DNA of 36,619 nucleotides from Dehalococcoidales bacterium (lineage in GTDB: Bacteria; Chloroflexota; Dehalococcoidia; Dehalococcoidales; RBG-16-60-22), in the NCBI GenBank assembly GCA_046760985.1, contig JBHIFE010000001.1, positions 1-36,619 of the forward strand, given 5' to 3'. The position numbers and the translations under genes are program-made. The notes under the pieces are model-generated. The model saw only the letters and a program-made list of their open reading frames with translations, searched no databases and was not told the DNA's origin. Positions 8,785 through 30,204 of the stretch are shown here, piece after piece. Every line of letters starts with the position of its first letter. The stretch's first letter is position 1.

Positions 8785-11133
8785 TTATTCGCTGTCTTCG
8801 ACTTTGTCCAAGGGCAAGCTAAAACAAAATTTGCTTCCCTTACCGACGGTACTTTCCAGCCAGACTTCGCCACCATGAGCCTCAACGTGACCTTTGGCAA
8901 TGGAGAGTCCGAGTCCGCTACCGGGGGTGCTATGGGTTACCCAGCTATCGACCCGGTAGAATCGCTCGAAAACCTTATCTTGGTGTTCTGGGGGGATGCC
9001 TATCCCCTGATCACTGACACTGACCACGACTTTACCATCTCTGGTCTCACCAGCTATGGTAACCTCACCACCCTCTGGCGAGTATTTTACCGCGTTTTCT
9101 GTCAGGTTGCGCAATACCTGTTCCATACACCGAACATCAGCCTCAATCACAGGGAAAGAAGGCGAAAATTGCAGGGTGAACTTATGATTCTTGGCTCGTG
9201 GGGCAATCTCATCCACAACCTTCTGGGCAAGTCGGGGGATCAGTACCGGCTCCTTTTCCAGTTTGAGGGCTCCGGCTTCTAGTTTGGCTGATTGCAGGAG
9301 CTTGTCAATCAGGTCGCGCAGTTCATCAGTCTTCTCATTGATAATCTGGAGGAACTCTCGCTGGGTTTCCTCTTCCCAAGAGGCATCTTGACGAAGCAAT
9401 GAGGTGGAATAGCCCTTGATGAGAGTAAGCGGGGTCCGTAGCTCATGGGAGACTGAGGAAATAATCTGAGACCTTAATCGGTCCGCCTCATGCAGAGCTC
9501 TTGCCTCCTCCGCCTCATTGGTCAGCTGGTCCCTTTCAATGGCTATGGCGATATAATCGGCTATAGCCTGGACAAGACGACGATCCGACTCAGAGAAGGC
9601 TTGAGTATCCCGAAAGCTTATCATAACAAGGCTTCCAATATGCCGGCCCTGATGGCATACCTGACCACAAATATGGCTCTGCGCTTTCGGGCGTAAAGCA
9701 TCAGACTGAAGAAACGCAGTAACTGCCGCTTTGACCCTATCTTGGCTATCATCATCTGTCGGCTCCGAAATCGAGCCTGATGAAAGCTCATTACCGCTAA
9801 ATATAAACTGAGAATGAGTTCCTTTGTCCAGCCCAACCGCAGACTGCACCACTAGACCACTTTGGTCGGCACCTTGGAGAAGCAACGCTCCACCATCTGC
9901 CCCAGAGATAATCTCCACCGCTTTAACCACCACCGCATCTAGAAGACGGGATAAATCAAGAGTGGAGGTTAGAATCTCCGACACCGAGAGTAGCGAAGAG
10001 AGCTCTTTCGTCCTTTGCTCTAGCTCACCATAAGAGGTCTTCAGTTTGGTCCGCATGTCGTCAAAAGTCTGGGCTAGTATGCCGACTTCGTCTTTACCTA
10101 AGGTGGTAACCGGGCTGCTTAAGTCCCCTTCGGCTATCCTTTGGGAAGCGGTGGTAAGCATCCTAATACGGCTGCCGATATCTCGTGTGGTTACTGCCAC
10201 AAACAGGAGACTAACAACGACCAATCCTACTCCGAAGAGAAGCAGATTTTGATACAATTCACGAGTGGGGGCGAGTGCTTCTTCCTCTGACTGCCGGATG
10301 ACAACACCCCAGTTGGCCTTGGAGAGGGGAACGAAGGCCAGCACATCCTTCCTGTCCACCTTTTGCCCTGGTTCATGACAGGTATGACACACCCCGCGGG
10401 TCGGCTCTCCAGCACTAATCAGCCTGGCAAAGCGACCACTATGGTCGCTTTTCTCAAAAGGAGCCAGCTTAGGCCCAGGCTCAGTTCTGGCGACGACAAT
10501 CCCGTTCTGGTCTACAATCTCGACATAGCCTGTCTCTCCCAGTCTTATGGGGCGGACGAAGCCGCCGATACTCGATTGAGCTAGGTCAATAGCCACCACG
10601 AGCACACTTTTGCTCCCTTGTTGTCCCTGTTTAGTGAGACTAGTAAGAAAAACCACCGGGGTATCAGTCACCGGCAATGAAGTAAGCCCAGAGATACTGG
10701 GCTCACCACTACTTATAGCTTGGCTGATGCTAGGATAGGAGGAAATATCAATATCTGCTATCCCCAAATCCTCTGGCTCACTCCATATAACCTGCCCTCT
10801 TTCATTGAGGAGATAGATGCTATGAGTATAAATGGACAACCGGGAATAGGTGTCCTCAAGTTCTTCTATCTGTGGTTCAAAGTTATCCTTTGCCCCGTCA
10901 CTTTCTATCATCTGGGCAGTGTTTTTCAGCTCAACGAGAGCACGCCCCAGCGCTTCGTCCAGGTAGTCGGCTACCAGGCGGGCAGTAGTCAGCCGGTCTT
11001 GAAGCATGGTTTCGGTAGCCTTGTTCACCGCTCCCATGCCCAAAGAGCTAAATACTCCAATGCCCAGTAGCAGCCCTAGCGTAGTCAGGAGAGTAATCTT
11101 TTTCCCCAGAGTTAGGTTTGTCAGTAATTTCAC
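8785..11133 (-). CDS. Sensor histidine kinase: TM, Cache-like extracytoplasmic domain with CxxCH, TM, HAMP, GAF, HisKA, HATPase
   Basis: TM helices at about aa 14-35 and 297-314. The intervening region has Cache-like YLLNERGQVIW and GYVEIVDQNGIVV strands and CHTCH at aa 249-253. H-box SHELRTPL, N-box NLTENAVKYS, G-boxes DQGIGI and GSGLGLSI. GTG start. Confidence 0.9.
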   Translation of the reverse strand: MKLLTNLTLGKKITLLTTLGLLLGIGVFSSLGMGAVNKATETMLQDRLTTARLVADYLDEALGRALVELKNTAQMIESDGAKDNFEPQIEELEDTYSRLSIYTHSIYLLNERGQVIWSEPEDLGIADIDISSYPSISQAISSGEPSISGLTSLPVTDTPVVFLTSLTKQGQQGSKSVLVVAIDLAQSSIGGFVRPIRLGETGYVEIVDQNGIVVARTEPGPKLAPFEKSDHSGRFARLISAGEPTRGVCHTCHEPGQKVDRKDVLAFVPLSKANWGVVIRQSEEEALAPTRELYQNLLLFGVGLVVVSLLFVAVTTRDIGSRIRMLTTASQRIAEGDLSSPVTTLGKDEVGILAQTFDDMRTKLKTSYGELEQRTKELSSLLSVSEILTSTLDLSRLLDAVVVKAVEIISGADGGALLLQGADQSGLVVQSAVGLDKGTHSQFIFSGNELSSGSISEPTDDDSQDRVKAAVTAFLQSDALRPKAQSHICGQVCHQGRHIGSLVMISFRDTQAFSESDRRLVQAIADYIAIAIERDQLTNEAEEARALHEADRLRSQIISSVSHELRTPLTLIKGYSTSLLRQDASWEEETQREFLQIINEKTDELRDLIDKLLQSAKLEAGALKLEKEPVLIPRLAQKVVDEIAPRAKNHKFTLQFSPSFPVIEADVRCMEQVLRNLTENAVKYSPEGGEVTIAGETRDGKVVVSVSDQGIGIPPEHQDKVFERFYRVDSWVTHSTPGSGLGLSIAKGHVEAHGGEVWLESTVGKGSKFCFSLPLDKVEDSE

Positions 11134-11390
11134 CGTTCACGCCTCATTACGGGAAACATCCTTGCCAGGACGCTTACTCAGATTCGGTATTTACTATTAG
11201 ATGCCGGATCGTGAAGTATCGCATACCTGATTATCTAGAGCTTATAGTAAAATTATACATCATTAAACCCTCGGTGTTCCATCTTGGGGCAGTAACCTCC
11301 GATACTGGACAATTCATCAAATAATCTGAAGTAAACTCCAAACAGACAATTCAAGAGCAGCTTATAGTCCTTCGCTTATTTTCTCGAGTT

Positions 11391-11421
11391 GGCCTCCTAG
11401 TCGTGGAGGTCTTTTCTTTTT
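11391..11421 (+). terminator. Orphan terminator-like hairpin on the plus strand in a 725-bp non-coding gap
   Basis: GGCCUCC-UAGUCGU-GGAGGUC (7-bp stem including one G-U) followed by UUUUCUUUUU. No convincing plus-strand gene lies upstream. Confidence 0.3.
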
Positions 11422-11858
11422 GTCAGGCTTTTGAGCATGCCAGAGAGTATGAAGGATGCAATTGCTTCCTCTAATTTTACAAAATAGGCTTTTGTGCAAT
11501 AGTGAAACTGACAAACACAAAAGCACCTTAACAACCGAATACACACAAAGCCCAAGCTGAACGCTTGCCCCAGTCTCTGGGCAAATAAAATACCCTAGAC
11601 TAGCTGACACTAGCCAGGGCAAGTCTAACAAAGCGGAGTGACCACAATGCTAGACTGGGGAAAGTATATTACTGTTTCTTTTATCGTTTCACCTGTTGTC
11701 GGGTTTATTGCTTTAATCACCATGTTTTTTGCTCCCCATCTAGTGTGATTTTCACCTAGGTCATCAGCAGTAACCGGCTCATTAACTATTTCCGCTAAAG
11801 CATTCTCTTTGAACTAGATGTCGCCAGAGCAACTTCTTCTATTCTCTCTAGGATAGTA

Positions 11859-13859
11859 TCACTCACTTTGAAGGTCAGGAACAATGCTTTCGTAATAATC
11901 CAATGACTTCGGATTAACTAGAGCATCCCTATTTACGACTACCCTACCATGTATTATGTTCGTGACCGCGATTTCCACTTTCTTCATGTTGAGCGTATAA
12001 GGGATGTCCGACACTTCAATAATTCTAGCCGGAACATGCCGCGGAGAGGCATTTTCACGAAGGGTTTTTCTAATTTTATTCTGCAAATCGTCTGTTAAGT
12101 TGTATCCCGTAGCGAGTTTAACAAAGAGGATAATACGCTGGTCGCCTTTCCACTCCTGTCCAATAGCCAGGCTATCGGCAACCTCCTCTAGCTTCTCTAC
12201 TTGGTTATATATTTCAGCGGTGCCAATGCGAACTCCTGAGGGTTTTAAGACAGCGTCAGAGCGACCAAAAAAGGTTATTCCCCTAGTATCACTATGAATC
12301 ATGATGTAATCTCCGTGACGCCATACCCTCGGGTAAATACTAAAGTAAGCCTCTTTATATCTCTCGCCATTCGGATCATTCCAGAAATAAAGTGGCATGG
12401 AGGGGGCAGGAGCTTCACAGACAAGCTCTCCCATTTGGTCAAGTACTGGGCTACCTTTTTCATCATAACAATTCACCTTCATTCCCAAAGCTGCCCTCTG
12501 TAATTCACCAGCATACACAGCGAGAGTAGGACTCCCGATAGCAAAACAGCCATTGATATCTGTGCCGCCAGAAATAGAATTAAAGTGTAGGTCTGCTTTA
12601 ATGGCTTTATATATGTATTCAAAACCCTCAGCCGAAAGAACTGAACCGGTTTGGGATATTTCCCGCAGTGATGACAAATCATAATCCTTTCCAGGCTCAA
12701 GCCCCTCAGTTCTAAGATAGTTGATGTAACTGGCACTGGTACCGAAAATTGTTATCTTCTCATCCTGTATCAGTTTCCACATGGCACCCGGATCAGGATA
12801 ATTGGGGTTACCATCATATAATACTATGGTAGCTCCTATGGCTAAGGAACTAAGCAGCCAGTTCCACATCATCCAACTGCAAGTGGTTATGTAGAAGATT
12901 GTATCCTCTCGCTTTAAGTCGGTATGAAGTATCAACTCCTTTAAATGATTGATGAGGACTCCGCCAGCTCCCTGAACCATGCACTTTGGCTTACCAGTTG
13001 TTCCTGAGGAAAACATGATAAATAGAGGGTGATCAGAAGGTAACTGCTCAAATTGAATTTCAGGTTGCTCTTCCCCAGCTATGAATTGATCATAATACAC
13101 AGAGTTAGGAATATGACTGATATCAGTTTTTTCTCCCGTATAACGAACCACGATAACTTTTTCCAAAGAGGGTATTCCCCTGACAATCTCGCCAGCGTTA
13201 GCTAAGGAATTAAAGGTCTTCCCCTTATAAAAATAGCCATCGGCCGTGAATAGAACCTTTGGTTTAATTTGACCAAGACGCTCCAGAGTTGCCTGCGCAC
13301 CGAGATCAGTAGCACAAGAAGACCATACCGCGCCAATACTGGTAGTAGCCAGCATAGCAGTAGCGGTCTCTATTAAATTAGGCATATAAGCCACTACCCT
13401 GTCTCCAGGCTTAACCCCTACATTGCGCAGAGATTTGGCAAGACGAGCCACGGAATCATAAAGTTCGGCATAGCTCATCCTGGCAGATTTCTGAGTTTCT
13501 CCTTTGAATATGAAAGCGAGATGGTCGTCTCTGTATCTCAACAGGTTCTCAGCAAAATTCAATCTGGCACCACCAAACCACTTAGCACCGGGAAACTTAC
13601 TTAAGTCGTCAACCACCTCGTCATACTGGCGAGAGGCTTTGATTGGGGCAAATTCCCACATAGCCGCCCAAAAGTCAGGTATCTTCTCAACTGACCAGTC
13701 ATATAGCTCATCATACGAGTCAATCGTAAGACCATATTTTTCATTGACAAAGCTAGTGAACCAGGTCAGGTTAGCTTGTTTCTTAATTTCCTCGGAGGGC
13801 TCCCAAATGGGCACCTTCACAGCACTCACTCCTTTAGCGTTTGGCTTTAACTCACTCAA
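11859..13859 (-). CDS. aacS: Acetoacetate-CoA ligase (acetoacetyl-CoA synthetase)
   Basis: 666 aa. The N-terminus IWEPSEE...YDELYDWSVEKIPDFWAAMWEF is characteristic of AacS. The AMP-binding motif is MFSSGTTGKPK. It lies 8 nt downstream of the BKACE gene. Confidence 0.85.
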   Translation of the reverse strand: MSELKPNAKGVSAVKVPIWEPSEEIKKQANLTWFTSFVNEKYGLTIDSYDELYDWSVEKIPDFWAAMWEFAPIKASRQYDEVVDDLSKFPGAKWFGGARLNFAENLLRYRDDHLAFIFKGETQKSARMSYAELYDSVARLAKSLRNVGVKPGDRVVAYMPNLIETATAMLATTSIGAVWSSCATDLGAQATLERLGQIKPKVLFTADGYFYKGKTFNSLANAGEIVRGIPSLEKVIVVRYTGEKTDISHIPNSVYYDQFIAGEEQPEIQFEQLPSDHPLFIMFSSGTTGKPKCMVQGAGGVLINHLKELILHTDLKREDTIFYITTCSWMMWNWLLSSLAIGATIVLYDGNPNYPDPGAMWKLIQDEKITIFGTSASYINYLRTEGLEPGKDYDLSSLREISQTGSVLSAEGFEYIYKAIKADLHFNSISGGTDINGCFAIGSPTLAVYAGELQRAALGMKVNCYDEKGSPVLDQMGELVCEAPAPSMPLYFWNDPNGERYKEAYFSIYPRVWRHGDYIMIHSDTRGITFFGRSDAVLKPSGVRIGTAEIYNQVEKLEEVADSLAIGQEWKGDQRIILFVKLATGYNLTDDLQNKIRKTLRENASPRHVPARIIEVSDIPYTLNMKKVEIAVTNIIHGRVVVNRDALVNPKSLDYYESIVPDLQSE

Positions 13860-13867
13860 GCCTACCT

Positions 13868-14791
13868 TTAGAAGTTTACTTTATCTAATCCTTTAAGACC
13901 TAGAATTTCTCTTGCCTCATCGGGTGTAGCTGGTTCCAAGCTTAACTCCCGAGCTATCCTCACAATCTTTTCTACCTGTTCAGCATTACTCTTAGCTTTG
14001 ACTCCCTTACCAACGTAAAGGCTATCCTCCATACCAACTCGGGCATTACCACCCATAATCAGTGACATGGTGCACATTGGCATCTGAGTCCGACCAGCGG
14101 CACAAACTGACCAAACAAAGTCGCCGATTGCTTCACGAGCAGTATTATAAAGGAATACCAGATTACTTGCTGACGGTTGAATGGATCCTAGAATGCCTAG
14201 GACAAATTGAAGATAAACAGGTTTTTTAATAGGATGCCCCTTCTCGAGCATGTAGGCTAGGTTATAAATCATGCCGGTATCGTATATTTCTATTTCCGGC
14301 TTTGTCCCATTTTCGGCAAAAGTTTTCAAATACTGCTCCAGTGACTTAAATGTATTAGGAAAGATAAGGTCTTTTGTCATCTCTAAATATTTCGGTTCCC
14401 AATCATACTTAAAGGTGTCTACTATTTCCGTACCTCGGGATATATTAAAATTTATCGACCCAAAATTACATGAGGCAAGCTCGGGCTTGAGGAGAGGTAT
14501 CGGCCTGAGCCGCTCCTCGACAGTCATCCCGAGACCCCCACCTGTGGTTACGCAAATAACCATATTACATCTGCTTTTTATATTGCCAACTATTTCCCTC
14601 ATTAATTCCACATCAGAACTAGGTTGTCCCGTTTCCGGATTACGGGCATGAATATGAGCCACTGCAGCTCCAGCCTCATAAGCTCGCACTGCCTCATCGG
14701 CAATTTGCTTTGGCGTGATGGGTAAGTATGGGCTCATGCTCGGAGTATGTATGCTACCAGTTATCGCTGCTGAAATAATAGCTTTTGCCAA
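13868..14791 (-). CDS. Beta-keto acid cleavage enzyme (BKACE/DUF849 family); candidate triacetate acetoacetate-lyase
   Basis: 307 aa. IISAAITGSIHTPSMSPYLPITPKQIADEAVRAYEAGAAVAHIHARNPETG is the typical BKACE N-terminus. TTG start with AAAGGAGGTGG SD 7 nt upstream. Confidence 0.85.
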   Translation of the reverse strand: MAKAIISAAITGSIHTPSMSPYLPITPKQIADEAVRAYEAGAAVAHIHARNPETGQPSSDVELMREIVGNIKSRCNMVICVTTGGGLGMTVEERLRPIPLLKPELASCNFGSINFNISRGTEIVDTFKYDWEPKYLEMTKDLIFPNTFKSLEQYLKTFAENGTKPEIEIYDTGMIYNLAYMLEKGHPIKKPVYLQFVLGILGSIQPSASNLVFLYNTAREAIGDFVWSVCAAGRTQMPMCTMSLIMGGNARVGMEDSLYVGKGVKAKSNAEQVEKIVRIARELSLEPATPDEAREILGLKGLDKVNF

Positions 14792-14830: not shown

Positions 14831-15445
14831 TTATCCCTTTTTCCTTTCCTTGGGAGCCCCGCGGTCATCCGGAACCTCGGATACCATATATGGAGTCCCA
14901 CCCTGACAGGCACGGCAGACTTCCCCATCATCAACCGGATAGGCTTCTCTACACAGGGGACAAATGGTTAATCCACCCCGGCGCTGTTTTTTCCTGAAAG
15001 GGGGGTTAACCTTAACCCGTTGGATGCCGCAGATATTTGATCCAGCTTCTCTGATCTGTTCTATAAGGAGCTTTGAGTCCTGTTCTTTTTTAGACTTTAG
15101 CTTGAAAAACCAGCTTTTGATCTCGGACCATACTTCTACCTTGGTCGGATCCAGAAAAACCCGTATCCCTTCACCCTGGTATTTCTCATAAATGGTTAAG
15201 GCAAAACGACCCATATTGATGACTTTGAGCCATCCGTTCCCTATGGTGCACGGGGTGAGAAGCTGTATTGCGTCAGGGAGACAGACGGGGGTTTCGCATA
15301 TGGCATCAAACAGTCCGTCTTTAGGAAGGTGCTTGAACGCCAGATCTACCATAAACCCCCCTATGACCACGCCCGGGGCAGCGTATCCGTGAAAGGATTT
15401 AACCAGATTTACATATTCTTCAAACGTATAGGAACAAATATTCAT
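14831..15445 (-). CDS. FmdE-family protein with C-terminal zinc ribbon
   Basis: HGYAAPGVVIGGFMVD...LPDAIQLLTPCTIGNGWLKV resembles the FmdE domain. The C-terminal CPLCREAYPV...CRACQ is a zinc ribbon. Confidence 0.7.
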   Translation of the reverse strand: MNICSYTFEEYVNLVKSFHGYAAPGVVIGGFMVDLAFKHLPKDGLFDAICETPVCLPDAIQLLTPCTIGNGWLKVINMGRFALTIYEKYQGEGIRVFLDPTKVEVWSEIKSWFFKLKSKKEQDSKLLIEQIREAGSNICGIQRVKVNPPFRKKQRRGGLTICPLCREAYPVDDGEVCRACQGGTPYMVSEVPDDRGAPKERKKG

Positions 15446-15611: not shown

Positions 15612-16454
15612 CTATAGAAAGATTGTCCCTACATTAAGACTCGTCTTCAAGTCAACCTCAAGCGTTTTCTTTTCATAGCCCGGATAAACAATTTCGAGTG
15701 TGTACTTGCCGCTATTTTCTTCAAGGTCATCAAACTTAAAATCACCATAGTTATCGGTCACAAACTCAGCAATTTTCTCATTTGAGGCGCCGACCAAAGT
15801 TACCTTGGCGCCTTCGGCACATTCATTTTTACTATCTACCTGAACCGCAACACTACCTCCAATGAAACATTTGGTAAACCGATACAGATTCTTGTAATAT
15901 ACACGTGGCTTTGTTTTGTATTTTGGCTCATAAGCTTCCAACTTCTCAGCTTTGATGATGTCCTGCATTTCAGAATCCTCGACATAACGCATGCATAACG
16001 CTCCAGTAGGGCAAGCCTGAACACACCGGGGCTCTTTCCATCCCTCATCCAGCAGGTGGGCGCAAAAGGTGCATTTTTGCGGTACATTACTCTCTTCGTT
16101 CCACCAGATGACCCCGTAAGGGCACGAATCGACAATATTTGTCTGTCCCTTTGCCTTATCTGGGTCAATGATGACGATGCCATCGTCCCTCTTATATATG
16201 GCTCCGTCCCCTGCTGTCTTGATACAGGGGGCATCATCGCAATGCAGGCACGGGACAGGTAGATAGGCGACATCAATAATAGGATATTGTCCCCTTTCCT
16301 TCCTCATGATATTCATCCACCTATGCCCAAGCCTGGGTTGTGACACCGAGTATCCCGGCCAATCATTGTCCACATGTTCATCCTTGCAGGCAAGGAAACA
16401 GTTATTACAGTCTTCGCATTTTTCCACATCAATGATCATGTGCCATTTTTTCAT
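15612..16454 (-). CDS. Transhydroxylase-type beta subunit 1 (three [4Fe-4S] motifs + C-terminal beta-sandwich domain)
   Basis: Start moved to [27 protein letters not shown]. Its ATG overlaps the alpha-1 TGA (ATGA). Cys clusters: [28 protein letters not shown]...CVQACP. The C-terminal KVTLVG...[10 protein letters not shown]...YTLEI is carboxypeptidase-regulatory-like. The layout matches my recollection of the small subunit of Pelobacter pyrogallol-phloroglucinol transhydroxylase. Confidence 0.85.
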
Positions 16455-19400
16455 TTTATACTCTCCGACCCCGTCCATTTTTCTATTTGCACAAGGCATG
16501 AATTTGCTGCCATACTGTGTGATTTTTTGATCATCATTCGGCTCGGAGTCAATTGATTAATACATCCGCCACGGTCTGCTGAATATCCCGGTTCACCCAC
16601 TGGGTCATAGATTGCCGAAGATTCGTACGAGTGAACAATTCCGGGAGGAACACGTTCGGTCACCTGTGCCGCACAAATTACGGCTCCCCTGTCATTGAAC
16701 ACCTTGACCAGATCATTCTCTTTGATTCCCCGGTCAGCAGCATCCTTCGAGTTGATTCTGACAATCCAGTAGTAATAACCGTCAATCAGGACTCGATGGT
16801 CCTTGATCTCGTTGATCCAGCTCTCCTTAGCATCGCCCATGGTGTGGAAGCTGAACCGGGGATGCGGGGTTATCAACTGTAACGGGTACTTTTCATAGAG
16901 CTCCGTGGTATGATGACCTTCCCAGGCGGGAATATATTTAGTCATGGTCGGTCTCTCCGGGTCATCTGGATCAAACCTTTTTAGGCTTGAACAAACAAAC
17001 TCTATCTTGCCCGATTGCGTCTGAAGCCCTTTCCCAAACTTCTCGGTATAGTCTGCCGGTAACGGTGCTATCTCCGGTGTGTCTTTTAGTCTATCCTCGG
17101 CAAACCATCTAAAGGATACCGGCGCCCGTAACTCCTCCTTGGGTGCGGGGATAACATAGTAACCCTTCTTAAGGAATTTCTTCCATGAAATGACCTTGGG
17201 GAGATCAGTGCCATCAAATAGTCGCTTGCACCAGTCAAATTCAGTCGCGCCCTCGGAAAATGGTGCTGAAAGCCCCAGCTTTTTTGTAATCTCAAGGAAA
17301 ATCTGAAAGTCTGATTTTGATTCACCCAGAGGTTCGATACACTTGTGTTGCATGATGGCGACACGGTGGTTACACTGGGTGAAGCTATGTTGGACATACC
17401 CGCCACAGTTGGCAAATTCACTAATATCCCAACGCTCAAAACTGGTGCAGGCGGGCAACAGGATATCAGCAAACTTGGCCTCGCCTTCAAACCAGATGGA
17501 CTGATTCACCACAAATTGCAGGTTGTCGGAGCGATAAGCCTTCACGTAGCGGTTCGTCTCGCTCATGGTGCCGAAATGAGAGCCGCCGTATTTGTAATAC
17601 ATCCGGATTGGTGCACTGCCTGGTGCCGGATACTCAAATTTTTGGAACTGACCTTCAATACTCTTGGTGTCAGTCGGATAACCGGACGTATGACTCTCCA
17701 GAATTGCTTCAGGAATATTCAGCCTTGGTACCCTCTGATAGACCGTATTTACGGTGGGGAGCTGAGGCATCCGCTGATACATACTGACAGCCAGCGCTGT
17801 AGCTTGTAGGTCGCCGGACAGACCCCCCTCTGCATAACCCGGAAAGAAAAATCCGGCGTCTACTGGTGCCCCTTGTTGCATACAACCCATATTCACACCG
17901 GGTTTGCCCAGACCCTGCATAGCCATGAGGCAGACCATGGAACGAGCCCACTCATTTCCAGTGGCACAGCGGCAGGCGCCGCCAAAACCGCTCAAGCCCC
18001 CGGCTGCCAGGTAAGTCTTTTTGGTTCCCCATTCTCTTGCCAAAGCCCGGACATCTTTTGCCGGAATTCCTGCTTCATTTTCCTGCCATTCGGGGGTTTT
18101 GGGTATGCCGTCTTCCTTGCCCAGGATGTAGTCTTTCCACTCGTCAAACCCGGTAGTCCGCTTGGCGACATACTCTTTGTCGTAGAGGTCTTCAGTGATC
18201 CAGACATAGGCAATGGCAAGGGCAAGAGCATTGCCTGTTGCCGGCCTGGGGGCAAACCACTTGCCGCCAAGCAGGGCAGCCGTGTGATTATAGAATGGAT
18301 CGATGTGTACCATTTTGATACCTAACTCTTTCAGCCATTGACGACGAACGGTTCCTTCAAACGCAGCGTAGATTCCGCTGGTGGCTTCCGGATCACTCGA
18401 CCAGAACACCACCATTTCACATTCTTTAAGACAATCTTCAACCGTGCCATAGGTCTCTGGAGCACCAAGCCGCATACTGTATCCCCAATGGTGCATGGCT
18501 CCCCAGTACCACCCCTCCCAACTATCCGGATTATGGACAACGGGGGTAAAACCGATCGAGTTAAAGAACCTGAGTCTGGCGCTTAACCAGTAGCCTAATA
18601 TTCCCCAGGTATGGTGGGATCCACTGCCGTTCAGGATGGCACCCGGACCATAATCTCTCTTAACTCGCTTGATCTCATTGGCAACAATATCTGTCGCCTC
18701 ATCCCAGCTGATCCGTTCATAGCCTGATATCCCTCTGTTCTGGCAATTCCGTTCGCCGTTTGGATCAAAATCAACCCGTTTCATGGGGTATAATAGCCTG
18801 TCCGGTGAATAGACCATCGATTTCCATGCTAACGTATGGGGTGAGATGGTCGTCTTTCGCGGAGGGGTAAACGTTTTGCCTCTGGCCTTAATGGTCCAGG
18901 GCGCTGCATCGCTGTCATCAAAGTCAATGGGCGTGATTCGCATTATTTTACCGTCCTTCACGTAAACAAAGACCGGCCCGCCATTGGTATTACTGGTATA
19001 TCTGGTTACGCCATTACCAACATTCGTTCCATATTTCGTGCCGACTGTCAGAGCTTGACTCAGTGTCTCCATAAACCAATATGTCAACTCATCAGGTCCT
19101 TCTAACCCTAATTGAAAGTTCTTCATGGCATTGATCATGGACAACTGATCCTTGGGTGGCATGAGAAATTCCACGCCCAAACGGGCACTTGTGAAGGTCA
19201 TACAAACATCAGGGCTGGAATGGATTCCTCTTCTTGAAATAATCTTACCGTCACTGAAGGTAAAATACCTACCCACTGAATTATCTTTAACTTTTATTTG
19301 TGCGGTTAAATTTTTTTCTTTGAGGCGGTTCTTGAACGACGGATGCATTATTGCTGCCCGTCTTAACGATAGCTTAAGTCCAAGAAGTACTATTGAGAGG

Positions 19401-19468
19401 GTCATATTTGCTATTATCAATGATTTTGATAATATCTTATCTACTATTATTGATTTCATATTTTCCAC
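16451..19468 (-). CDS. Transhydroxylase-type molybdopterin (MGD) alpha subunit 1, with a roughly 138-aa N-terminal SCP2-like extension
   Basis: From aa 163 onward ([23 protein letters not shown]...[13 protein letters not shown]...VFWSSDPE...[14 protein letters not shown]...[11 protein letters not shown]) it resembles the transhydroxylase large subunit as I remember it. It has no TAT signal and no N-terminal Fe-S Cys motif. The start is uncertain (GTG 19468, ATG 19459 or ATG 19348). Confidence 0.8.
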
Positions 19469-19540: not shown

Positions 19541-19873
19541 CTAATAGTTAATAACTACCAGCATACTCGCTGGCTTGTTGGTCTTATTGATTATCTCTCT
19601 CCCTTCATTGGGAGCGATGTAAACTGAATCCCACGGACCAAGAGTAACTTCTTCCTTCTTGGTCTTAACCGTGATTTCTCCGTTGAGGACGAAGTAGAAC
19701 TTCTCTGCTGGCGTTGCGCCGAATTCGGCTCCACCCCCGGGAAGAAAATGGGAAAGACCTACCCAGAACTTCTCAGCTCCTGTTTCCTCTTTACCGCTCA
19801 GCCTGAGAGCAACCATATTGAAATGCCCGGGGGCTTCATAGGGCTTAACCTGATCCAATTTAATCTTTTTCAT
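19541..19873 (-). CDS. Cupin-domain protein
   Basis: Start moved to MKKIKLDQVKPYEAPGHF (AGGAGG SD). The track's longer ORF overlaps the cyclase gene. GGGAEFGATPAEKFYFVLNGEITV...VYIAPNEGREIIN is a single cupin barrel. Confidence 0.7.
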   Translation of the reverse strand: MKKIKLDQVKPYEAPGHFNMVALRLSGKEETGAEKFWVGLSHFLPGGGAEFGATPAEKFYFVLNGEITVKTKKEEVTLGPWDSVYIAPNEGREIINKTNKPASMLVVINY

Positions 19874-19919
19874 AAATCGTCTCCTCCTGACATTGATATG
19901 ACAGCTCAGACAGCGGGGG

Positions 19920-20681
19920 CTACTGGTCGCCCTCATCCACGATAGCTACCAATCTCACGATAGACCCATCGCCTTTCACCCACCGGATAGGGAAGCCAGC
20001 AATGGTGACTCTCTTGCCCACGACTTGGTCAATGTCACCACCTACGTTTTCCCATCCCATAATGCCGTTGCGCAATATCAGGTTATGGCAGGGCTCCCAC
20101 TCAGGAAAGTCCTCCAGCACATCGTGTCCGGTTTCCCTCTTATACTCTTCACAAATGTCCGGTCGTAGTGGGCCCGGTCCATGTGGACCAATAGCTGTAG
20201 CCAGCGGATGATCCAGTGCTTGCTGGTCAACCCCGACCGCCTTCACTCCCTTTTCAACGAACCATTCGCCTGCCTCCTTGTACAGTCCGGGCGAATAGCA
20301 AAAGTACTCCACACTATCTGAGTATTTGGCATGCCAGTGGGTGTGGACAATGACAATATCGTTTTTTTCAATTTTAGGTCTTGCCTTCTCTAGATCCTCT
20401 GGGGTAATCACTTCCCACTTCTTCTTCGGGATGTCCACAATTACTCCAGTACCGTAGTACTTTTCCAGAGGAATCTCATCGGTAAACATTCCTCCCTCAA
20501 ACACATGTGCCGGCGAATCGGCGTGAGTGGTGCAGTGCATAGTAGTTGTAATTACCTGGGAGAGCACTCCAGATTTGGCATGATAATGCATACGCTCAAT
20601 CTTGACATCGGCAAAATACGGCCACAAAGGCACTTTGTCACCAAAAGGGTGACTCAAATCAACCAGCTTTACTTTTCCCAC
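19920..20681 (-). CDS. Cyclase-family (kynurenine formamidase/isatin hydrolase-like) metal hydrolase; candidate dihydrophloroglucinol cyclohydrolase
   Basis: MHCTTHADSPAH matches the HxGTHxDxPxH cyclase-family metal motif. 253 aa. GTG start with AAGGAGG SD. Confidence 0.8.
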   Translation of the reverse strand: MGKVKLVDLSHPFGDKVPLWPYFADVKIERMHYHAKSGVLSQVITTTMHCTTHADSPAHVFEGGMFTDEIPLEKYYGTGVIVDIPKKKWEVITPEDLEKARPKIEKNDIVIVHTHWHAKYSDSVEYFCYSPGLYKEAGEWFVEKGVKAVGVDQQALDHPLATAIGPHGPGPLRPDICEEYKRETGHDVLEDFPEWEPCHNLILRNGIMGWENVGGDIDQVVGKRVTIAGFPIRWVKGDGSIVRLVAIVDEGDQ

Positions 20682-20722
20682 AATAGAAACCTCCTTGAAT
20701 TTTTTGACTGCTTAATATACTA

Positions 20723-21487
20723 CTACCAGGTAGTCACACCGCCATCTACATAGAGGATTTGCCCAGTAACGAAATCCGACGCCTTTGAGGCAAGAAATAT
20801 GGTAGGACCGACAATATCCTCCGGCATTCCCCAGCGACCAAGTGGAATACGAGACCTCATCCTCTTGGCATACTCAGGGTCGGCTAAGGCGGGACGGGTA
20901 AGGTCAGTCTCCACAATAGTGGGCGCCACCGCATTTACCAGCACATTATGCTTCGCCCACTCGCAAGCCAGCGTTCGCGTCAGAGTGTCAACCGCTCCTT
21001 TACTGGCACAATAAGCGGCATAGTCTGCGGGGAGACCATATCTACCCCTCACCGATGATAAGTTTATGATCTTACCGCCACCCTGTTTTATCATCTCCCG
21101 TCCAACTGCCTGGCAGCAGAGAAAGGTCCCGCGGGTGTTAATATCCATGACCTGTTGCCACTCATTAATTGGGAAAGTGTCGGCAGGTTTGCGAATCGCC
21201 AAACCGGCAGCATTCACTAGAATATCAATGCGGGGAAATACCTCCAAAATTTTCTTCACCATATCCGCCACTGATTGCTCCTGAGTAACATCTACGGTAA
21301 CCGCCAGCGCTTTCCTGCCTTTATTGCGTATCTCCTCGGCTACCTTCTCTAAGTGCTCAAGTCGACGGCTTGCTACGATGACATCCGCGCCGTAATCAGC
21401 TAATCCCAGAGCTAGAGCGTGACCAATCCCGCCGGCACCACCAACCACTAAAGCGACCTTGCCCCTCAAATCAAATAAATCGGTCAT
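20723..21487 (-). CDS. Classical short-chain dehydrogenase/reductase, probably NADP(H)-preferring; candidate phloroglucinol reductase
   Basis: GGAGGIG cofactor motif, NAAG, and catalytic S...YxxxK (SSVRG...YCASK). The basic pair SRR after beta-2 suggests NADP(H). This is the first gene of the long minus-strand operon. Confidence 0.85.
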   Translation of the reverse strand: MTDLFDLRGKVALVVGGAGGIGHALALGLADYGADVIVASRRLEHLEKVAEEIRNKGRKALAVTVDVTQEQSVADMVKKILEVFPRIDILVNAAGLAIRKPADTFPINEWQQVMDINTRGTFLCCQAVGREMIKQGGGKIINLSSVRGRYGLPADYAAYCASKGAVDTLTRTLACEWAKHNVLVNAVAPTIVETDLTRPALADPEYAKRMRSRIPLGRWGMPEDIVGPTIFLASKASDFVTGQILYVDGGVTTW

Positions 21488-21648
21488 ATTAAACTCCTTT
21501 TCTAAAATTTCCTGCGGTTATCGTAACTATCGGTTATATTATAATAACTTTTGCCTATACTGCAACACAGAATTCTCAGTATAAATAGATTCATTGCTCT
21601 TTGCTTACCATAGGTCTTGGGTAAGATTGTATTCTGAAACTGGGGCTG

Positions 21649-21678
21649 TTGACATCAAAATGAGAGGTTGTTTATATT
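21649..21678 (+). promoter_or_regulatory. Sigma-70-like promoter for the universal stress protein gene
   Basis: TTGACA (21649-21654), an 18-nt spacer, then TATATT (21673-21678), about 45 nt upstream of the coding start. Confidence 0.35.
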
Positions 21679-21723
21679 GTTTATTATTAAAGCTGAATAG
21701 GAGGAGAAATTTTTAAAAATATT

Positions 21724-22179
21724 TTGGTTCCATTAGACGGCTCCAAGCTGGCGGAGTGTGTTCTTCCCTACGTAGAAGCCCTAGCAACGGGCTGCACGGC
21801 GGAGGAGGTTATCTTGGTCAGCGTCACAGAACGCATCAAGGGCTATAGAGTTATATCTGATTACAGTCAGCCACTTGGGGAGCGTTTAGTACCTGAGGCA
21901 GTGGGTAAGAAAGAAAGACAAGCCCAAAAATATCTTAACAGAGTAGCCCAGGGACTTAAAGACAAAGGCATTAACGTGCAAACACTAGTACTCCTTGGGA
22001 ATCCTGCTGAGGAGATCGTCTTCTATGCAGATACCAAGCATTGTGACCTTATTGTTATGGCTAGTCATGGACGGTCTGGCCCTAGCCGGTGGGTTCATGG
22101 TAGTGTTGCTGATAAAGTCTTCAGAGCTAGTTGCGTACCGGTTCTGATGGTGCGAGCGCCGGGCTGTATAACTGTATAA
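21724..22179 (+). CDS. Universal stress protein (UspA family)
   Basis: VPLDGSKLAE...DLIVMASHGRSGPSRWVHGSVADKVFRASCVPVLMV is the USP signature. The track start is a TTG and the true start is unclear (the frame is open from 21697). Confidence 0.8.
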   Translation: MVPLDGSKLAECVLPYVEALATGCTAEEVILVSVTERIKGYRVISDYSQPLGERLVPEAVGKKERQAQKYLNRVAQGLKDKGINVQTLVLLGNPAEEIVFYADTKHCDLIVMASHGRSGPSRWVHGSVADKVFRASCVPVLMVRAPGCITV

Positions 22180-22233
22180 TTAGTACTTGATTCCCGAGCC
22201 AAAAAGGGGCACCGAAGAGATAATGAATAAGGT

Positions 22234-23187
22234 CTATGTCGATTTGCCCCGTTCCTTTTGTGCCCAGTCCAGGAGGTAATCTAAGAAGTCTTTCCTAGAC
22301 CTCTCTACTTCTTCGGCAGACCAAGTGTAGAAACCCTGACCCGTTTTGAATCCCAGTTCTCCGTTTTCTACCTTTTTCCTTAAAAGAGGCGAGGGACCCG
22401 GAGAAGAGTCAATATACTTTAGAATGTAATCGTGGATAGCTAAGGTCAGATCAAGTCCCACCATATCGGCGGTCTCCAGCGGCCCCAAAACTGGGAGCCG
22501 AATGCCGAATCCCTTCTTAATCACGTCATCAACGCTGGCCGGGTCAGCAATACCATTTTCCACAATGGAGATAGCCTCTCGCCACAAGGCGTGCTGAAGC
22601 CGGTTACCTATAAACCCTGGTACATCCTTCATGACCTTCACCGGGTGTTTCCCGGCATTCTTCAAGAATCGATAAGTTGTTTCTACAGCTTCCTCAGAAG
22701 TTTCCCTTCCCTTAATTACTTCTACCAGTGGAATTATATAGGGGGGGTTCCAAAAATGAGTCCCTAGAATTCTTTCCCTGTTGTGAGCTTTGGATGCGAT
22801 TTCGGTTATACTCATTACGGATGTATTTGTAGTCAAAATGGTCTCTACAGGACAAAGCTGATCCAAATCCTGAAAAGCCTTCTGCTTTAACTCCAGATTT
22901 TCGGTGATAGCCTCAATAACTAGTTGTGCATCTGAGGTTGCCTGCCCCATATCCGTAGTGGTTTTTATCCTGCTTACGATTGTCTCGATTTCACTCTCCA
23001 ATACAACTCCTTTTCTGGCCATCATGGAGAGGTTTGCTCTGATATTTTCAACAGCCTTTGAGAGCAACCCGTTTTCGATATCCAACAGATAAACATTGTA
23101 GTTCTTAGAGGCAAAAATCTGGGCAATTCCGTGTCCCATCAAACCCGCACCAATCACAGAAATATTCCTAATGTCTTCCGCTTGCAT
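22234..23187 (-). CDS. 3-hydroxyacyl-CoA dehydrogenase-family NAD-dependent dehydrogenase; candidate 3-hydroxy-5-oxohexanoate dehydrogenase
   Basis: ISVIGAGLMGHGIAQIFA Rossmann N-terminus. HFWNPPYIIPLVEVI and GFIGNRL are motifs of the HADH/Hbd/L-carnitine dehydrogenase family. 317 aa. Confidence 0.85.
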   Translation of the reverse strand: MQAEDIRNISVIGAGLMGHGIAQIFASKNYNVYLLDIENGLLSKAVENIRANLSMMARKGVVLESEIETIVSRIKTTTDMGQATSDAQLVIEAITENLELKQKAFQDLDQLCPVETILTTNTSVMSITEIASKAHNRERILGTHFWNPPYIIPLVEVIKGRETSEEAVETTYRFLKNAGKHPVKVMKDVPGFIGNRLQHALWREAISIVENGIADPASVDDVIKKGFGIRLPVLGPLETADMVGLDLTLAIHDYILKYIDSSPGPSPLLRKKVENGELGFKTGQGFYTWSAEEVERSRKDFLDYLLDWAQKERGKST

Positions 23188-27989: not shown

Positions 27990-28958
27990 ATGAGGGTTAC
28001 CATTCCACGATTGAGAGGAGGATTGATACCGTTTGCAGCGGTCATGGTTCTGCTGGTAGTGCTGCCAGTGGTAGGGGTACCCCGGCAGTGGCTCCTTTAC
28101 CTCTTTCTCTTCTTTATATACCTAGCTCTGGCAAATATGTGGAATTTGCTTGCTGGTTATAGTGGTCTGATAATGCTATGCCCGGCTGCTTTTGTTGGGC
28201 TGGCAGGGTACACCGTAGCAATAGGCACATGGGTCGGTGTGCCTTTTTATCTAGGAATAATAGTTGGAGCTATAGTAGCGGCAGCATTTGCTCTACTCAT
28301 ATCTATCCCTGTCTTTAGGCTGAGAGGCATCTATTTTGCTATCGGGACACTAGTTCTACCTGAAGTACTGAAGGCTTGGTTTTTGCTTTGGAGACCGGTC
28401 GGGGGAGTGATGGTCGGTAGGGGTGCAGGCTACGCAGTAAAAGGTGTAGCCGGGGTTTCCTTGGTGGAGTGGTACTGGGTGGCTCTTGTTCTCGGGATGG
28501 CATCAATTTTCCTTATGCGAATAATCTTGAGTTCAAAACTGGGACTGGGGCTTGCCGCAATTCGCGATAATGATTACACTGCGGCAAGTTCTGGGATAAA
28601 TGTTTTCCAATTAAAGTTGTACTCCTTTCTTATTGCTGCCTTCATAATGGGAATAGCTGGGGCTGTCTTCTATTCTTATGGCGGATATATAGAGCCGGTG
28701 AGTGCCTTCAATATACGGTGGCTACTTTCAGCACTCCTCGCCACCGTCATAGGGGGCGAAGGCACTGAAGAGGGACCGATTGTTGGAACGGGTGTCGTTG
28801 TCTTTTTGCACTTCTTGCTAGCCAGATATGTTGGAATCAGCCTACTTATACAGGGTGCGTTACTAATCATCATAATGTTACTGGCACCGCAAGGTATCAT
28901 GGGCTTCTTACGCACGACCCGAGCTTACCGCTCCCTGGTACAATTAGCTGCCAGGTGA
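27990..28958 (+). CDS. livM: Branched-chain-type ABC transporter permease (LivM-like)
   Basis: Polytopic protein with NLLAGYSGLIMLCPAAFVGLAGY and AIRDNDYTAASSGINV motifs of LivM-family permeases. Start set to ATG 27990, just after AGGAGG. The alternative TTG at 27972 overlaps livH. Confidence 0.85.
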   Translation: MRVTIPRLRGGLIPFAAVMVLLVVLPVVGVPRQWLLYLFLFFIYLALANMWNLLAGYSGLIMLCPAAFVGLAGYTVAIGTWVGVPFYLGIIVGAIVAAAFALLISIPVFRLRGIYFAIGTLVLPEVLKAWFLLWRPVGGVMVGRGAGYAVKGVAGVSLVEWYWVALVLGMASIFLMRIILSSKLGLGLAAIRDNDYTAASSGINVFQLKLYSFLIAAFIMGIAGAVFYSYGGYIEPVSAFNIRWLLSALLATVIGGEGTEEGPIVGTGVVVFLHFLLARYVGISLLIQGALLIIIMLLAPQGIMGFLRTTRAYRSLVQLAAR

Positions 28959-29494
28959 CGAGCTAATGGTAAAAGCCACTTTGCCCGCTTGGATACACTT
29001 GGCGGGAATTGCGACAAATCAGCGATGACCGTAAATTCATACTTGGGGAAATGCCGTTGAAGCGCCTCTCTTAACGAACTTCTTACTATTATGAGCACGT
29101 TGACCATTGAAGCCAGAGCTAATTCGGTTGCAGGCATAAGCCCTTTACCACGCAGTTCCAGAGGACCAACCTCATCAATGATTACCAGGTCACATCTGTT
29201 CTCTACTGCCTTCTCAATAGCACTGCAGGCAAATAATATCCCCTTCCGGCTGATGGTATAGTCACCAACTCTTTCCCCTTCCTTGAAAAACCTATCACGT
29301 GATAGCCGAGCAAAAGGGATCTCTTCGCCGGTGAGGAGGTCAATCGCATTAAAGCCAGCCTGCTCCCCATGCTTGCGAGTCTCCGGACAAAGGACCCCGC
29401 CAATACTTAATCCCTGTCTTCGTAACCAGCTGATGTATTCACTGCACCAACTAGTCTTACCCGAACCTGGCTTACCTAAAATGAGGAGATTCAT
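28925..29494 (-). CDS. THEP1-like P-loop nucleoside triphosphatase
   Basis: Start moved to MNLLILGKPGSGKT (Walker A). The GGVLCPETRKHGEQAGFNAIDLLTGE block and Walker B DLVIIDEVGPLELRGKG follow the THEP1/NTPase_1 layout. Its ATG shares one base with the upstream TGA (TGATG). Confidence 0.7.
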   Translation of the reverse strand: MNLLILGKPGSGKTSWCSEYISWLRRQGLSIGGVLCPETRKHGEQAGFNAIDLLTGEEIPFARLSRDRFFKEGERVGDYTISRKGILFACSAIEKAVENRCDLVIIDEVGPLELRGKGLMPATELALASMVNVLIIVRSSLREALQRHFPKYEFTVIADLSQFPPSVSKRAKWLLPLARHLAANCTRER

Positions 29495-30204
29495 CAAAGA
29501 CCTGATGCAAAGGCAAATGCTGCGATAATCCAGCACAAGACTGTACTAGCTCCAGCACTGGCATAGAAAATCTTTGGCTTGATAGTTCTGAGTTGCAAAA
29601 GCTTAAGCCGAAGATGAGTGCCCACCATGTGTCCCAAGAGCAGCAGTCCAGTGCCTATAATGGCTAAGCCCGTGCCATTTGAAAATGTTGAAATGAGTTT
29701 CTCCATAGGTGCCATGAATGGCCAGTTACCCATGCCCAGCACTGAGGCAAAAACGGCGTAAAGGGTAATGCCCAAGTATCCTGCTGAGACACCAACCGCT
29801 ATGCGCATCTTGATACTACTTTCAAAACCTTTAAACATCAGACTGACTACTAAACTGAGCGCTAATGCCTCCAGAAGGATTGCTGAGGCTGGGTTGATCA
29901 CGAATGGGTCGAAAATGGACCTACCATAGATTAGAGCGCTCAGTGGTTTGAAAAGGGCGGCGACCAGCCCTATCCCAATCACCAGTTTAGGCTGTCTGTA
30001 GGTGGCTACGAATGTCGCCATGATTGACATGCCAATGCCAGCTGTAATTGCCCCTTTGTAGGGGAAGTGGATAAGGTGTAAAAACCCGCCTAGAGTAGCT
30101 TCTAAAAGTCCCCAAATTGAGCCAAAGACCAAAACCCCAATGAAAGCACTCAAAATGCCTTTTGATTCTGAGACTCTCTTTATTTTGCTGAATAATAGTT
30201 GCAT
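29494..30204 (-). CDS. Polytopic membrane protein of unknown family (about 6-7 TM)
   Basis: 236 aa, hydrophobic throughout (FIGVLVFGSIWGLLEATLGGFLHL..., GLAIIGTGLLLLGHMVG...). I recognise no motif. It lies 67 nt downstream of beta-2 and is coupled to the NTPase gene. Confidence 0.6.
   Translation of the reverse strand: MQLLFSKIKRVSESKGILSAFIGVLVFGSIWGLLEATLGGFLHLIHFPYKGAITAGIGMSIMATFVATYRQPKLVIGIGLVAALFKPLSALIYGRSIFDPFVINPASAILLEALALSLVVSLMFKGFESSIKMRIAVGVSAGYLGITLYAVFASVLGMGNWPFMAPMEKLISTFSNGTGLAIIGTGLLLLGHMVGTHLRLKLLQLRTIKPKIFYASAGASTVLCWIIAAFAFASGL

Follow-up and report, generated by a model that had tools for sequence, protein, structure and literature searches.

A stretch of 36,619 nucleotides from a Dehalococcoidales bacterium (NCBI GenBank assembly GCA_046760985.1, contig JBHIFE010000001.1, positions 1 to 36,619 of the forward strand; the whole stretch is called the window below) encodes alpha-1, a homologue of AthL, the large subunit of the molybdenum enzyme AthL/BthL of Pelobacter acidigallici. 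Alpha-1 was found to be the catalytic subunit of a distinct and widespread branch of the molybdenum enzymes of the pyrogallol transhydroxylase and resorcinol hydroxylase type, and its sub-clade to be linked to phloroglucinol catabolism. The branch carries an additional N-terminal region, and we have very little doubt that this is a translated domain of the sterol carrier protein 2 (SCP2) fold that defines a distinct subfamily. The fusion is a new domain architecture and subfamily inside a known enzyme family. The alpha-1 gene is organized as follows.

16451-19459, minus strand: alpha-1, an AthL-like molybdenum-bis(pyranopterin guanosine dinucleotide) (trans)hydroxylase large subunit with an N-terminal SCP2-fold domain, 1002 aa; recognized by Pfam PF21423, PF00384 and PF01568 and by its match to AthL

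19421-19459, minus strand: residues 1-13, a short, poorly conserved N-terminal helix (helix 2-10 of the AlphaFold model) found only in "long-form" homologues

19046-19420, minus strand: residues 14-138, the SCP2-fold domain including the "hydrophobic helix"; recognized by AlphaFold, Foldseek, hhalign and, in homologues, Pfam

19010-19045, minus strand: residues 139-150, a conserved Gly-rich linker (Gly144, Gly150) into the first strand of the AthL fold, AthL residue 4 being alpha-1 residue 151

16451-16453, minus strand: the stop codon

The initial annotation of this DNA, made from the sequence alone, had described a roughly 138-residue N-terminal extension of alpha-1 relative to a second AthL-like protein of the window, alpha-2, and this extension is indeed present. 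The open reading frame (ORF) at 16451-19468 on the minus strand has 1005 open codons counted from a GTG start, and in this reading a GGPV block begins at residue 163, as opposed to residue 25 in alpha-2. Alignment of the two proteins over 852 residues (59% identity) begins at alpha-1 residue 155, in the numbering of the 1002-residue form from ATG 19459 that was adopted once the start codon had been chosen. Residues 151-998 match residues 4-870 of AthL (PDB 4v4c_A) with E=0 and 1133 bits, so that about 150 N-terminal residues have no counterpart in AthL or alpha-2. None of the three Pfam domains of alpha-1, AhtL-like_1st (164-218), Molybdopterin (224-729) and Molydop_binding (863-991), lies before residue 164. 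ATG 19459 was taken as the start because close homologues begin with MKS at the equivalent position and an in-frame TGA sits directly before GTG 19468; the gene on record likewise has 1002 aa. A third candidate, position 19348 (Met38), was rejected, as it would cut away helix 1 of the extension with its conserved Leu25 (99%) and Ala36 (90%).

The extension is AT-rich, with a G+C content of 0.39 (0.32 in the first 60 codons) compared with 0.50 in the catalytic part. That it is nevertheless coding, as had been argued earlier, is borne out by matching loci of many phyla, in which it forms a single open frame with the catalytic part, of about 990-1070 codons wherever the contig is long enough. Its G+C content is lower than that of the catalytic part in 68 of 71 homologues, by 4.5 points on average, and the AT-rich 5' part is therefore a property of the family. 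Recent foreign acquisition as its source is ruled out by this family-wide bias and by the age of the fusion. Two loci from metagenome-assembled genomes have a fused alpha split in two frames (L014, 9001-11740, 584+382 aa; L054, 9001-11884, 518+618 aa), which are either frameshifts or assembly errors.

The fold of the extension was assigned by structure prediction and profile comparison. An AlphaFold model calculated from an alignment of 41 non-redundant extensions had a mean predicted local distance difference test (pLDDT) score of 88 and a predicted template modelling (pTM) score of 0.80. Its elements follow the order helix 2-10, helix 14-38, helix 40-46, four strands, two helices, one strand and helix 123-138, which is the SCP2 layout of N-terminal helices, five-stranded sheet and C-terminal helix. 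All 38 of the best 38 Foldseek matches in the PDB were SCP2 domains, with the SCP2 domain of UbiJ on top at E=1.5e-5, and others from the C-termini of the alkylsulfatases SdsA1, Pisa1 and YjcS and from archaeal, insect, yeast and mammalian sterol carrier proteins. Pfam SCP2 (PF02036) matches 18 of the 41 extensions at E<=1 (best 4.4e-5) and Alkyl_sulf_C (PF14864) matches 6; no third Pfam family recurs. The profile of the 41 extensions, compared with PDB sequences, had three Aedes SCP2-like-2 entries on top (E=0.07-0.14).

A profile search of 1.84 billion representatives gave 701 matches to the extension, many of them fragmentary, and the complete free-standing relatives among them have 118-131 aa. 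By hhalign, residues 14-138 match eight free-standing SCP2-like proteins with a probability of 99.95% (E=1e-37), and one of these, P0262, lies above the Pfam SCP2 cut-off (24.1 bits, profile positions 13-100 of 101). The SCP2 membership of the extension thus follows from its fold and from transitive homology through P0262, not from its own Pfam score. P0262 is encoded at L085 162-524 and a further free-standing protein, P0263, at L086 8001-8372. One complete fusion, P0216 (L084 159-1433), places the same SCP2 subfamily N-terminal to a 3-hydroxyisobutyrate dehydrogenase (HIBADH)-like protein (NAD_binding_2 + NAD_binding_11). The free-standing and HIBADH-fused forms would fit a portable ligand module.

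The initial annotation had read the extension as a hydrophobic helix followed by an SCP2-like domain and had called for a sequence or fold search. That search found a genuine SCP2 fold, but the helix is not a separate element: free-standing proteins start exactly at the homologous helix (MKFSLLLFGL...), and it is therefore helix 1 of the SCP2 domain. Residues 1-13 preceding it are missing from these relatives and from short-form homologues (MAFEK...). Only 20 of 41 homologues reach a Kyte-Doolittle maximum of at least 1.6 (19-residue window), and short-form homologues (MAFEKTQFSIILFGLEK...) have 3-4 charges in helix 1. Helix 1 is probably not a conserved membrane anchor. By direct reading, alpha-1 has no twin-arginine translocation (Tat) or Sec signal, the RR at 34-35 coming after and not before the hydrophobic stretch, and the extension, with one Cys, has no FS0 cysteine motif. 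We infer a cytoplasmic location for the protein, without membrane integration as a conserved trait.

Within the SCP2 domain the mean column identity among homologues is 51%, and Gln54, Arg64, Ser75 and Lys113, located in strands and helices, are invariant. The free-standing relatives, too, show no variation at Arg64, Ser75 and Thr52, which suggests that these residues serve the domain as such and not merely its contact with the molybdenum enzyme. The linker is similarly constrained (Gly144 100%, Gly150 92%).

The fusion is not peculiar to the window. With residues 1-165 alone as query, 282 protein clusters were found at E<=0.01, and all 120 clusters listed carry the AhtL-like_1st and Molybdopterin domains, most being about 1000 aa long. 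A scan of one genome per prokaryotic species gave 182 loci encoding a relative of the extension. Among the best 80 of these 182, from which the taxonomy was read, fused loci occur in Dehalococcoidia and other Chloroflexota, Desulfobacterota, Syntrophorhabdales, Syntrophales, Rhodospirillales (including Magnetospirillum sp. SS-4, a Phaeospirillum), Betaproteobacteria, Thermoleophilia, Acidobacteriota, Zixibacteria and Firmicutes, the latter including Sporomusa aerivorans DSM 13326 and Neomoorella sulfitireducens. Precomputed SCP2 annotation was present on 0 of about 200 listed homologues, and NCBIfam has no model for the extension. In agreement with the earlier remark that no such fusion had been described in the transhydroxylase/dimethyl sulfoxide (DMSO) reductase family, no paper linking SCP2 to transhydroxylases or to this family was found in the searchable literature, which does not hold most subscription journals.

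The catalytic part was examined in an alignment of 72 fused alphas, AthL, alpha-2 and short alphas from the same loci, at AthL positions 144, 153, 154, 174, 175, 176, 354, 404 and 560. The codons of the following alpha-1 residues were checked, and the paralogue is included for comparison.

18584-18589, minus strand: Trp291-Leu292, at the positions of AthL Arg153-His154

18518-18526, minus strand: Asp312-Ser313-Trp314, corresponding to AthL Asp174, Ser175 (the molybdenum ligand) and Trp176, conserved

17984-17986, minus strand: Phe492, at the position of AthL Trp354

31114-33732, minus strand: alpha-2, canonical AthL-type paralogue without the extension, 872 aa, with the same three Pfam domains from residue 26

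AthL, alpha-2 and four other short alphas have H-R-H-D-S-W-W-Y-Y at the nine positions. Ser175 and Trp176 are kept in all 72 fused alphas, and all but three of the 72 retain the full set His144, Asp174, Ser175, Trp176, Tyr404 and Tyr560. In contrast, neither Arg153 and His154 nor Trp354 is found in a single fused alpha: the first position is W, Y, F or P, the second L, I or S, and the third F, H, L, E or Q. Counted over the AthL set His144/Arg153/His154/Asp174/Trp176/Trp354/Tyr404/Tyr560, alpha-1 keeps five of eight and alpha-2 all eight. An active-site pocket predicted from the alignment to be less polar thus always accompanies the fusion. By pocket, the fused alphas comprise a W-L-F sub-clade including alpha-1, a Y-L/I-H (Y-x-H) sub-clade mostly of Alpha- and Betaproteobacteria, and a Y-L-E/L/Q sub-clade in Dehalococcoidia, Acidobacteriota and others.

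In a maximum-likelihood tree of the catalytic parts, all 72 fused alphas formed one clade (Shimodaira-Hasegawa-like support 0.987) with the AthL-type sequences beside it; the loci had been collected through the extension, so that the short-type sequences are an incidental sample. Since the fused alphas form one clade, the SCP2 domain was gained once and kept. The separate clade and the three changed positions uphold the earlier statement that alpha-1 and its small subunit beta-1 are not a simple duplicate of alpha-2/beta-2. Judged by its residues and by the alignment of its positions 19-870 with AthL 7-867, alpha-2, not alpha-1, is the predicted AthL equivalent of this window. The alpha-2 operon runs on into a 236-aa protein without a Pfam family and an NTPase_1/THEP1-like protein (window 28925-30204); as alpha-2 is identical to AthL at the nine positions, these unexplained companions go with the canonical-type enzyme and not with the SCP2-fused one. 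Fused W-L-F alphas and short AthL-type (R-H-W) alphas are encoded less than 9 kb apart in four loci (L006, L020, L031 and L082), and both types also occur in the genome of the window. This pairing may be functional, for example in consecutive hydroxyl transfers.

AthL/BthL (PDB 4V4C-4V4E) is the pyrogallol-phloroglucinol transhydroxylase, in which a hydroxyl group is transferred from pyrogallol to give phloroglucinol, with 1,2,3,5-tetrahydroxybenzene as co-substrate. The similarity of alpha-1/beta-1 to it extends to the three Pfam domains, the Ser molybdenum ligand, Asp174, His144, Trp176, Tyr404 and Tyr560, an adjacent iron-sulfur (Fe-S) small subunit of the same domains, the lack of a Tat signal and the link to phloroglucinol catabolism. 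Unlike AthL, alpha-1 has the N-terminal domain, has Trp, Leu and Phe for Arg153, His154 and Trp354, and belongs to a separate clade.

The link to phloroglucinol catabolism comes from the neighbouring genes, assigned by Pfam unless stated otherwise.

11859-13859, minus strand: acetoacetyl-CoA-synthetase-like ligase

13868-14791, minus strand: BKACE-family protein, TAL-like (also NCBIfam NF053538)

14831-15445, minus strand: FmdE-like protein

15612-16499, minus strand: beta-1, Fe-S small subunit with Fer4_11 and CarboxypepD_reg-like domains

19541-19936, minus strand: cupin

19920-20681, minus strand: cyclase-family protein, like dihydrophloroglucinol cyclohydrolase (DPGC)

20723-21487, minus strand: short-chain dehydrogenase/reductase (SDR), like phloroglucinol reductase (PGR)

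21724-22179, plus strand: universal stress protein, not a pathway gene, within the upstream span 19541-23187

22234-23187, minus strand: 3-hydroxyacyl-CoA-dehydrogenase-family (3HCDH) protein, TfD-like

A four-enzyme anaerobic phloroglucinol pathway (PGR, DPGC, TfD and TAL) has been characterised in Clostridium scatologenes (PMC10470551), and homologues of all four enzymes flank alpha-1. The BKACE gene scored 418.1 bits with the NF053538 model ('3,5-dioxohexanoate:acetyl-CoA acetone transferase'), just below the cut-off of 430; automatic naming would therefore pass it over, although its context fits. Of the 42 W-L-F loci, 16 have three or more of the four pathway genes within 9 kb, whereas none of the 30 loci in the other sub-clades does (Fisher p=7e-5; p=0.001 when restricted to loci of 15 kb or more; as the sequences are related, this is not a true probability). 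An independent metagenomic locus has the gene order cupin, SDR, 3HCDH, BKACE, alpha, beta. The beta gene lies downstream of the fused alpha in 64 of 83 loci; beta-1 has the C-terminal beta-sandwich domain of the AthL-type small subunits, and no membrane-anchor gene follows it. FmdE-like genes are linked to the fused alpha in 10 loci.

Other loci indicate other sources of substrate or other pathways. In Sporomusa aerivorans DSM 13326 (L073 7896-18137) a LysR regulator and the fused alpha/beta are followed by Pterin_bind, B12-binding and CobW genes and a RACo reductive activator, and a Desulfobacterota-type contig (L002) has B12-binding and URO-D genes upstream of the fused alpha. Such corrinoid methyltransferase neighbours suggest that hydroxylated rings are supplied by O-demethylation of methoxylated aromatics. 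The same contig L002 encodes a separate 138-aa protein with a clear Pfam SCP2 match (21678-22094), 9 kb downstream of the fused alpha and beside SnoaL_4 and DUF2148 genes. In four loci of the Y-x-H sub-clade, L033 (Magnetospirillum sp. SS-4, 8995-14631), L052, L042 and L076, alpha/beta are followed by a HIBADH-like dehydrogenase, with a cupin directly next in L033 and L052 and 3-5 kb further downstream in L042 and L076, and three of the four encode a 116-aa ORF without a Pfam family. No phloroglucinol-pathway genes were found near these four, and the Y-x-H sub-clade therefore probably serves another pathway. A "Rosetta-stone" link between the HIBADH fusion P0216 and the HIBADH-like neighbours was considered and dropped; such neighbours occur in 4 of 19 Y-x-H loci and two WLF-type loci with just 28-36% identity, which is suggestive at most.

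Judging from this neighbourhood, alpha-1/beta-1 would form phloroglucinol or convert a related polyhydroxybenzene, and so feed the PGR, DPGC, TfD and TAL homologues encoded around it, probably with a substrate or co-substrate preference unlike that of alpha-2/beta-2. The tethered SCP2 domain could bind an aromatic or amphiphilic ligand and either present it to the active-site funnel or keep it nearby. The substrate itself might be this ligand, but a compound shared throughout the clade, for example a polyhydroxybenzene co-substrate, is more likely. As a whole, with fused branch, pathway role and ligand hand-over taken together, the explanation stands in our judgement at an even chance. The hand-over step, proposed because of the SCP2 fold and the precedents of SdsA1 and UbiJ, is more tentative and would fall somewhat short of even.

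The first precedent is the alkylsulfatases SdsA1, Pisa1 and YjcS, in which a fused SCP2 domain is thought to help recruit a poorly soluble substrate. There, too, an SCP2-fold domain is permanently attached to a catalytic domain (Foldseek E=1.5e-5 to 1e-4, besides the PF14864 matches given above). Unlike in these enzymes, which have a metallo-beta-lactamase fold and a C-terminal SCP2 domain, the domain of alpha-1 is N-terminal, catalytic fold and chemistry are unrelated and the identity is 12-19%. The second precedent, UbiJ, is an accessory SCP2 protein holding hydrophobic aromatic (quinone) intermediates for hydroxylases. The SCP2 domain of Escherichia coli UbiJ (PDB 6H6N/6H6O/6H6P) is the best structural match (template modelling score 0.57 on target length), and UbiT is similar in kind. 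Unlike UbiJ, which is a separate protein in the Ubi metabolon, the alpha-1 domain is fused and has 13-15% identity to it, and none of the loci inspected contained ubi genes.

Several observations weigh against this explanation. The window's own extension scores only 12.6 bits (E=0.17) with Pfam SCP2, below the gathering score of 21.3. The top structural match, UbiJ, is a protein of a quinone pathway, and the best 19-residue Kyte-Doolittle window of alpha-1, 1.99 with one charge in helix 1, is at the level of a membrane helix. The free-standing relatives lie on short contigs or in gene contexts unrelated to aromatic metabolism. A full-length AlphaFold model of alpha-1 (48-sequence alignment), as the initial annotation had proposed, reached a pLDDT of 53 and a pTM of 0.45; the N-terminal domain alone was confident, but the whole model was too poor for docking this domain on the core. 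The roles of AthL Arg153, His154 and Trp354 in the active site are taken to be those reportedly assigned with the 2004 structure. Finally, the SCP2 residues are near-identical across the three active-site sub-clades. Sub-clade-specific residues tracking the active-site type were looked for, and only E131Q was group-specific, which gives no support for tuning to each substrate and is equally compatible with a purely structural or partner-binding role. Residues shared by all sub-clades point less to the variable substrate than to something that every member of the clade would bind, be it a partner or a ligand such as a co-substrate or quinone.

The pattern could also be explained by an adaptor for membrane and quinone, in which quinone is bound and the enzyme held at the cytoplasmic side of the membrane by the hydrophobic helix 1 together with the UbiJ-like SCP2 domain, so that the electrons of a water-dependent hydroxylation leave via the Fe-S clusters of beta without a separate anchor subunit. 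The rank of UbiJ among the structural matches and the hydrophobicity of helix 1 in the window and in about half of the homologues are consistent with it, as are the missing anchor gene after beta-1 and the constancy of the SCP2 residues, which is expected of a common ligand such as quinone. The clade is also common in respiring Rhodospirillales and Betaproteobacteria, where phloroglucinol genes are not nearby. However, helix 1 has its counterpart in the first helix of homologous free-standing proteins of 120-130 aa and carries 3-4 charges in half of the fused homologues, the identity to UbiJ is low, and the sub-clade of alpha-1 lies in phloroglucinol operons, where a redox-neutral hydroxyl transfer requires no electron acceptor. 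Resorcinol hydroxylase RhL/RhS of Aromatoleum (Azoarcus) anaerobium, of the same enzyme family as alpha-1/beta-1, is reported to be membrane-associated and water-dependent (cited in PMC10100899), which would speak for an adaptor; a membrane association of this kind had also been suggested for alpha-1 by the initial annotation. RhL is at most a putative member of the fused clade, however, and when a fused protein of Betaproteobacteria was used as query, nothing named Azoarcus or Aromatoleum was retrieved. On balance we regard the adaptor as unlikely, though by no means far-fetched.

A structural or regulatory role is a further alternative, with the SCP2 fold serving on the N-terminal face as an immobile lid, or as a surface for oligomerisation or for the docking of a maturation factor or partner protein. 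In other enzymes of the DMSO reductase family this face carries an FS0 domain or a Tat/chaperone-binding peptide. For an SCP2 domain the conservation is very strong, with a linker that does not vary and many polar residues that are invariant; this would fit such a role, as would SCP2 residues that stay constant while the active-site pocket varies, and the linked FmdE-like genes. On the other hand, this module is also used on its own and attached to an unrelated dehydrogenase, and the invariance of Arg64, Ser75 and Thr52 in the free-standing proteins points away from an interface with the molybdenum enzyme; we consider this role quite improbable.

The initial annotation had suggested a hydrophobic phenol as substrate, such as an alkylresorcinol or phenolic lipid; the SCP2 domain would then bind its alkyl tail. 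Lipids are the usual ligands of SCP2 domains, AthL has a more polar pocket than alpha-1 and the alkylsulfatases offer a precedent, but this proposal found no support and is very improbable, since the neighbours encode the pathway of unsubstituted phloroglucinol, or solute-binding-protein importers or O-demethylase systems (the latter in the acetogen locus), no recurring fatty-acid or alkyl-chain genes occur near these loci, and the conserved residues of the SCP2 domain are largely polar.

The preferred explanation, ligand hand-over in a phloroglucinol-feeding enzyme, can be carried further, to a fused clade that, in place of the textbook AthL type, supplies most of the phloroglucinol catabolised in anoxic sediments and by some acetogens, with the SCP2 domain holding 1,2,3,5-tetrahydroxybenzene or a quinone beside the molybdenum. 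We consider this extrapolation distinctly unlikely as it stands. If true, the two-subunit fused enzyme would be self-sufficient, with a built-in carrier for a reactive co-substrate or quinone, for which we know of no described precedent in the DMSO reductase family.

Anaerobic breakdown of tannins, flavonoids and other polyphenols runs through phloroglucinol, and to our knowledge AthL/BthL of Pelobacter is the only structurally known enzyme making phloroglucinol from trihydroxybenzenes. The fused branch is a large, apparently undescribed sister branch with a different pocket, and in one of its sub-clades the genes lie next to those of the phloroglucinol pathway. Its members are annotated merely as "molybdopterin-dependent oxidoreductase", "TMAO reductase" or "pyrogallol hydroxytransferase", and their extra carrier-type domain is left unannotated by Pfam and NCBIfam. 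Given the linkage of one fused sub-clade to the pathway, reconstructions that call all such genes pyrogallol transhydroxylases are probably too coarse. The fusion gives a testable handle on the origin of the co-substrate and on electron disposal in related hydroxylases, and it is carried by the cultured strains Sporomusa aerivorans DSM 13326, Neomoorella sulfitireducens and Magnetospirillum sp. SS-4.

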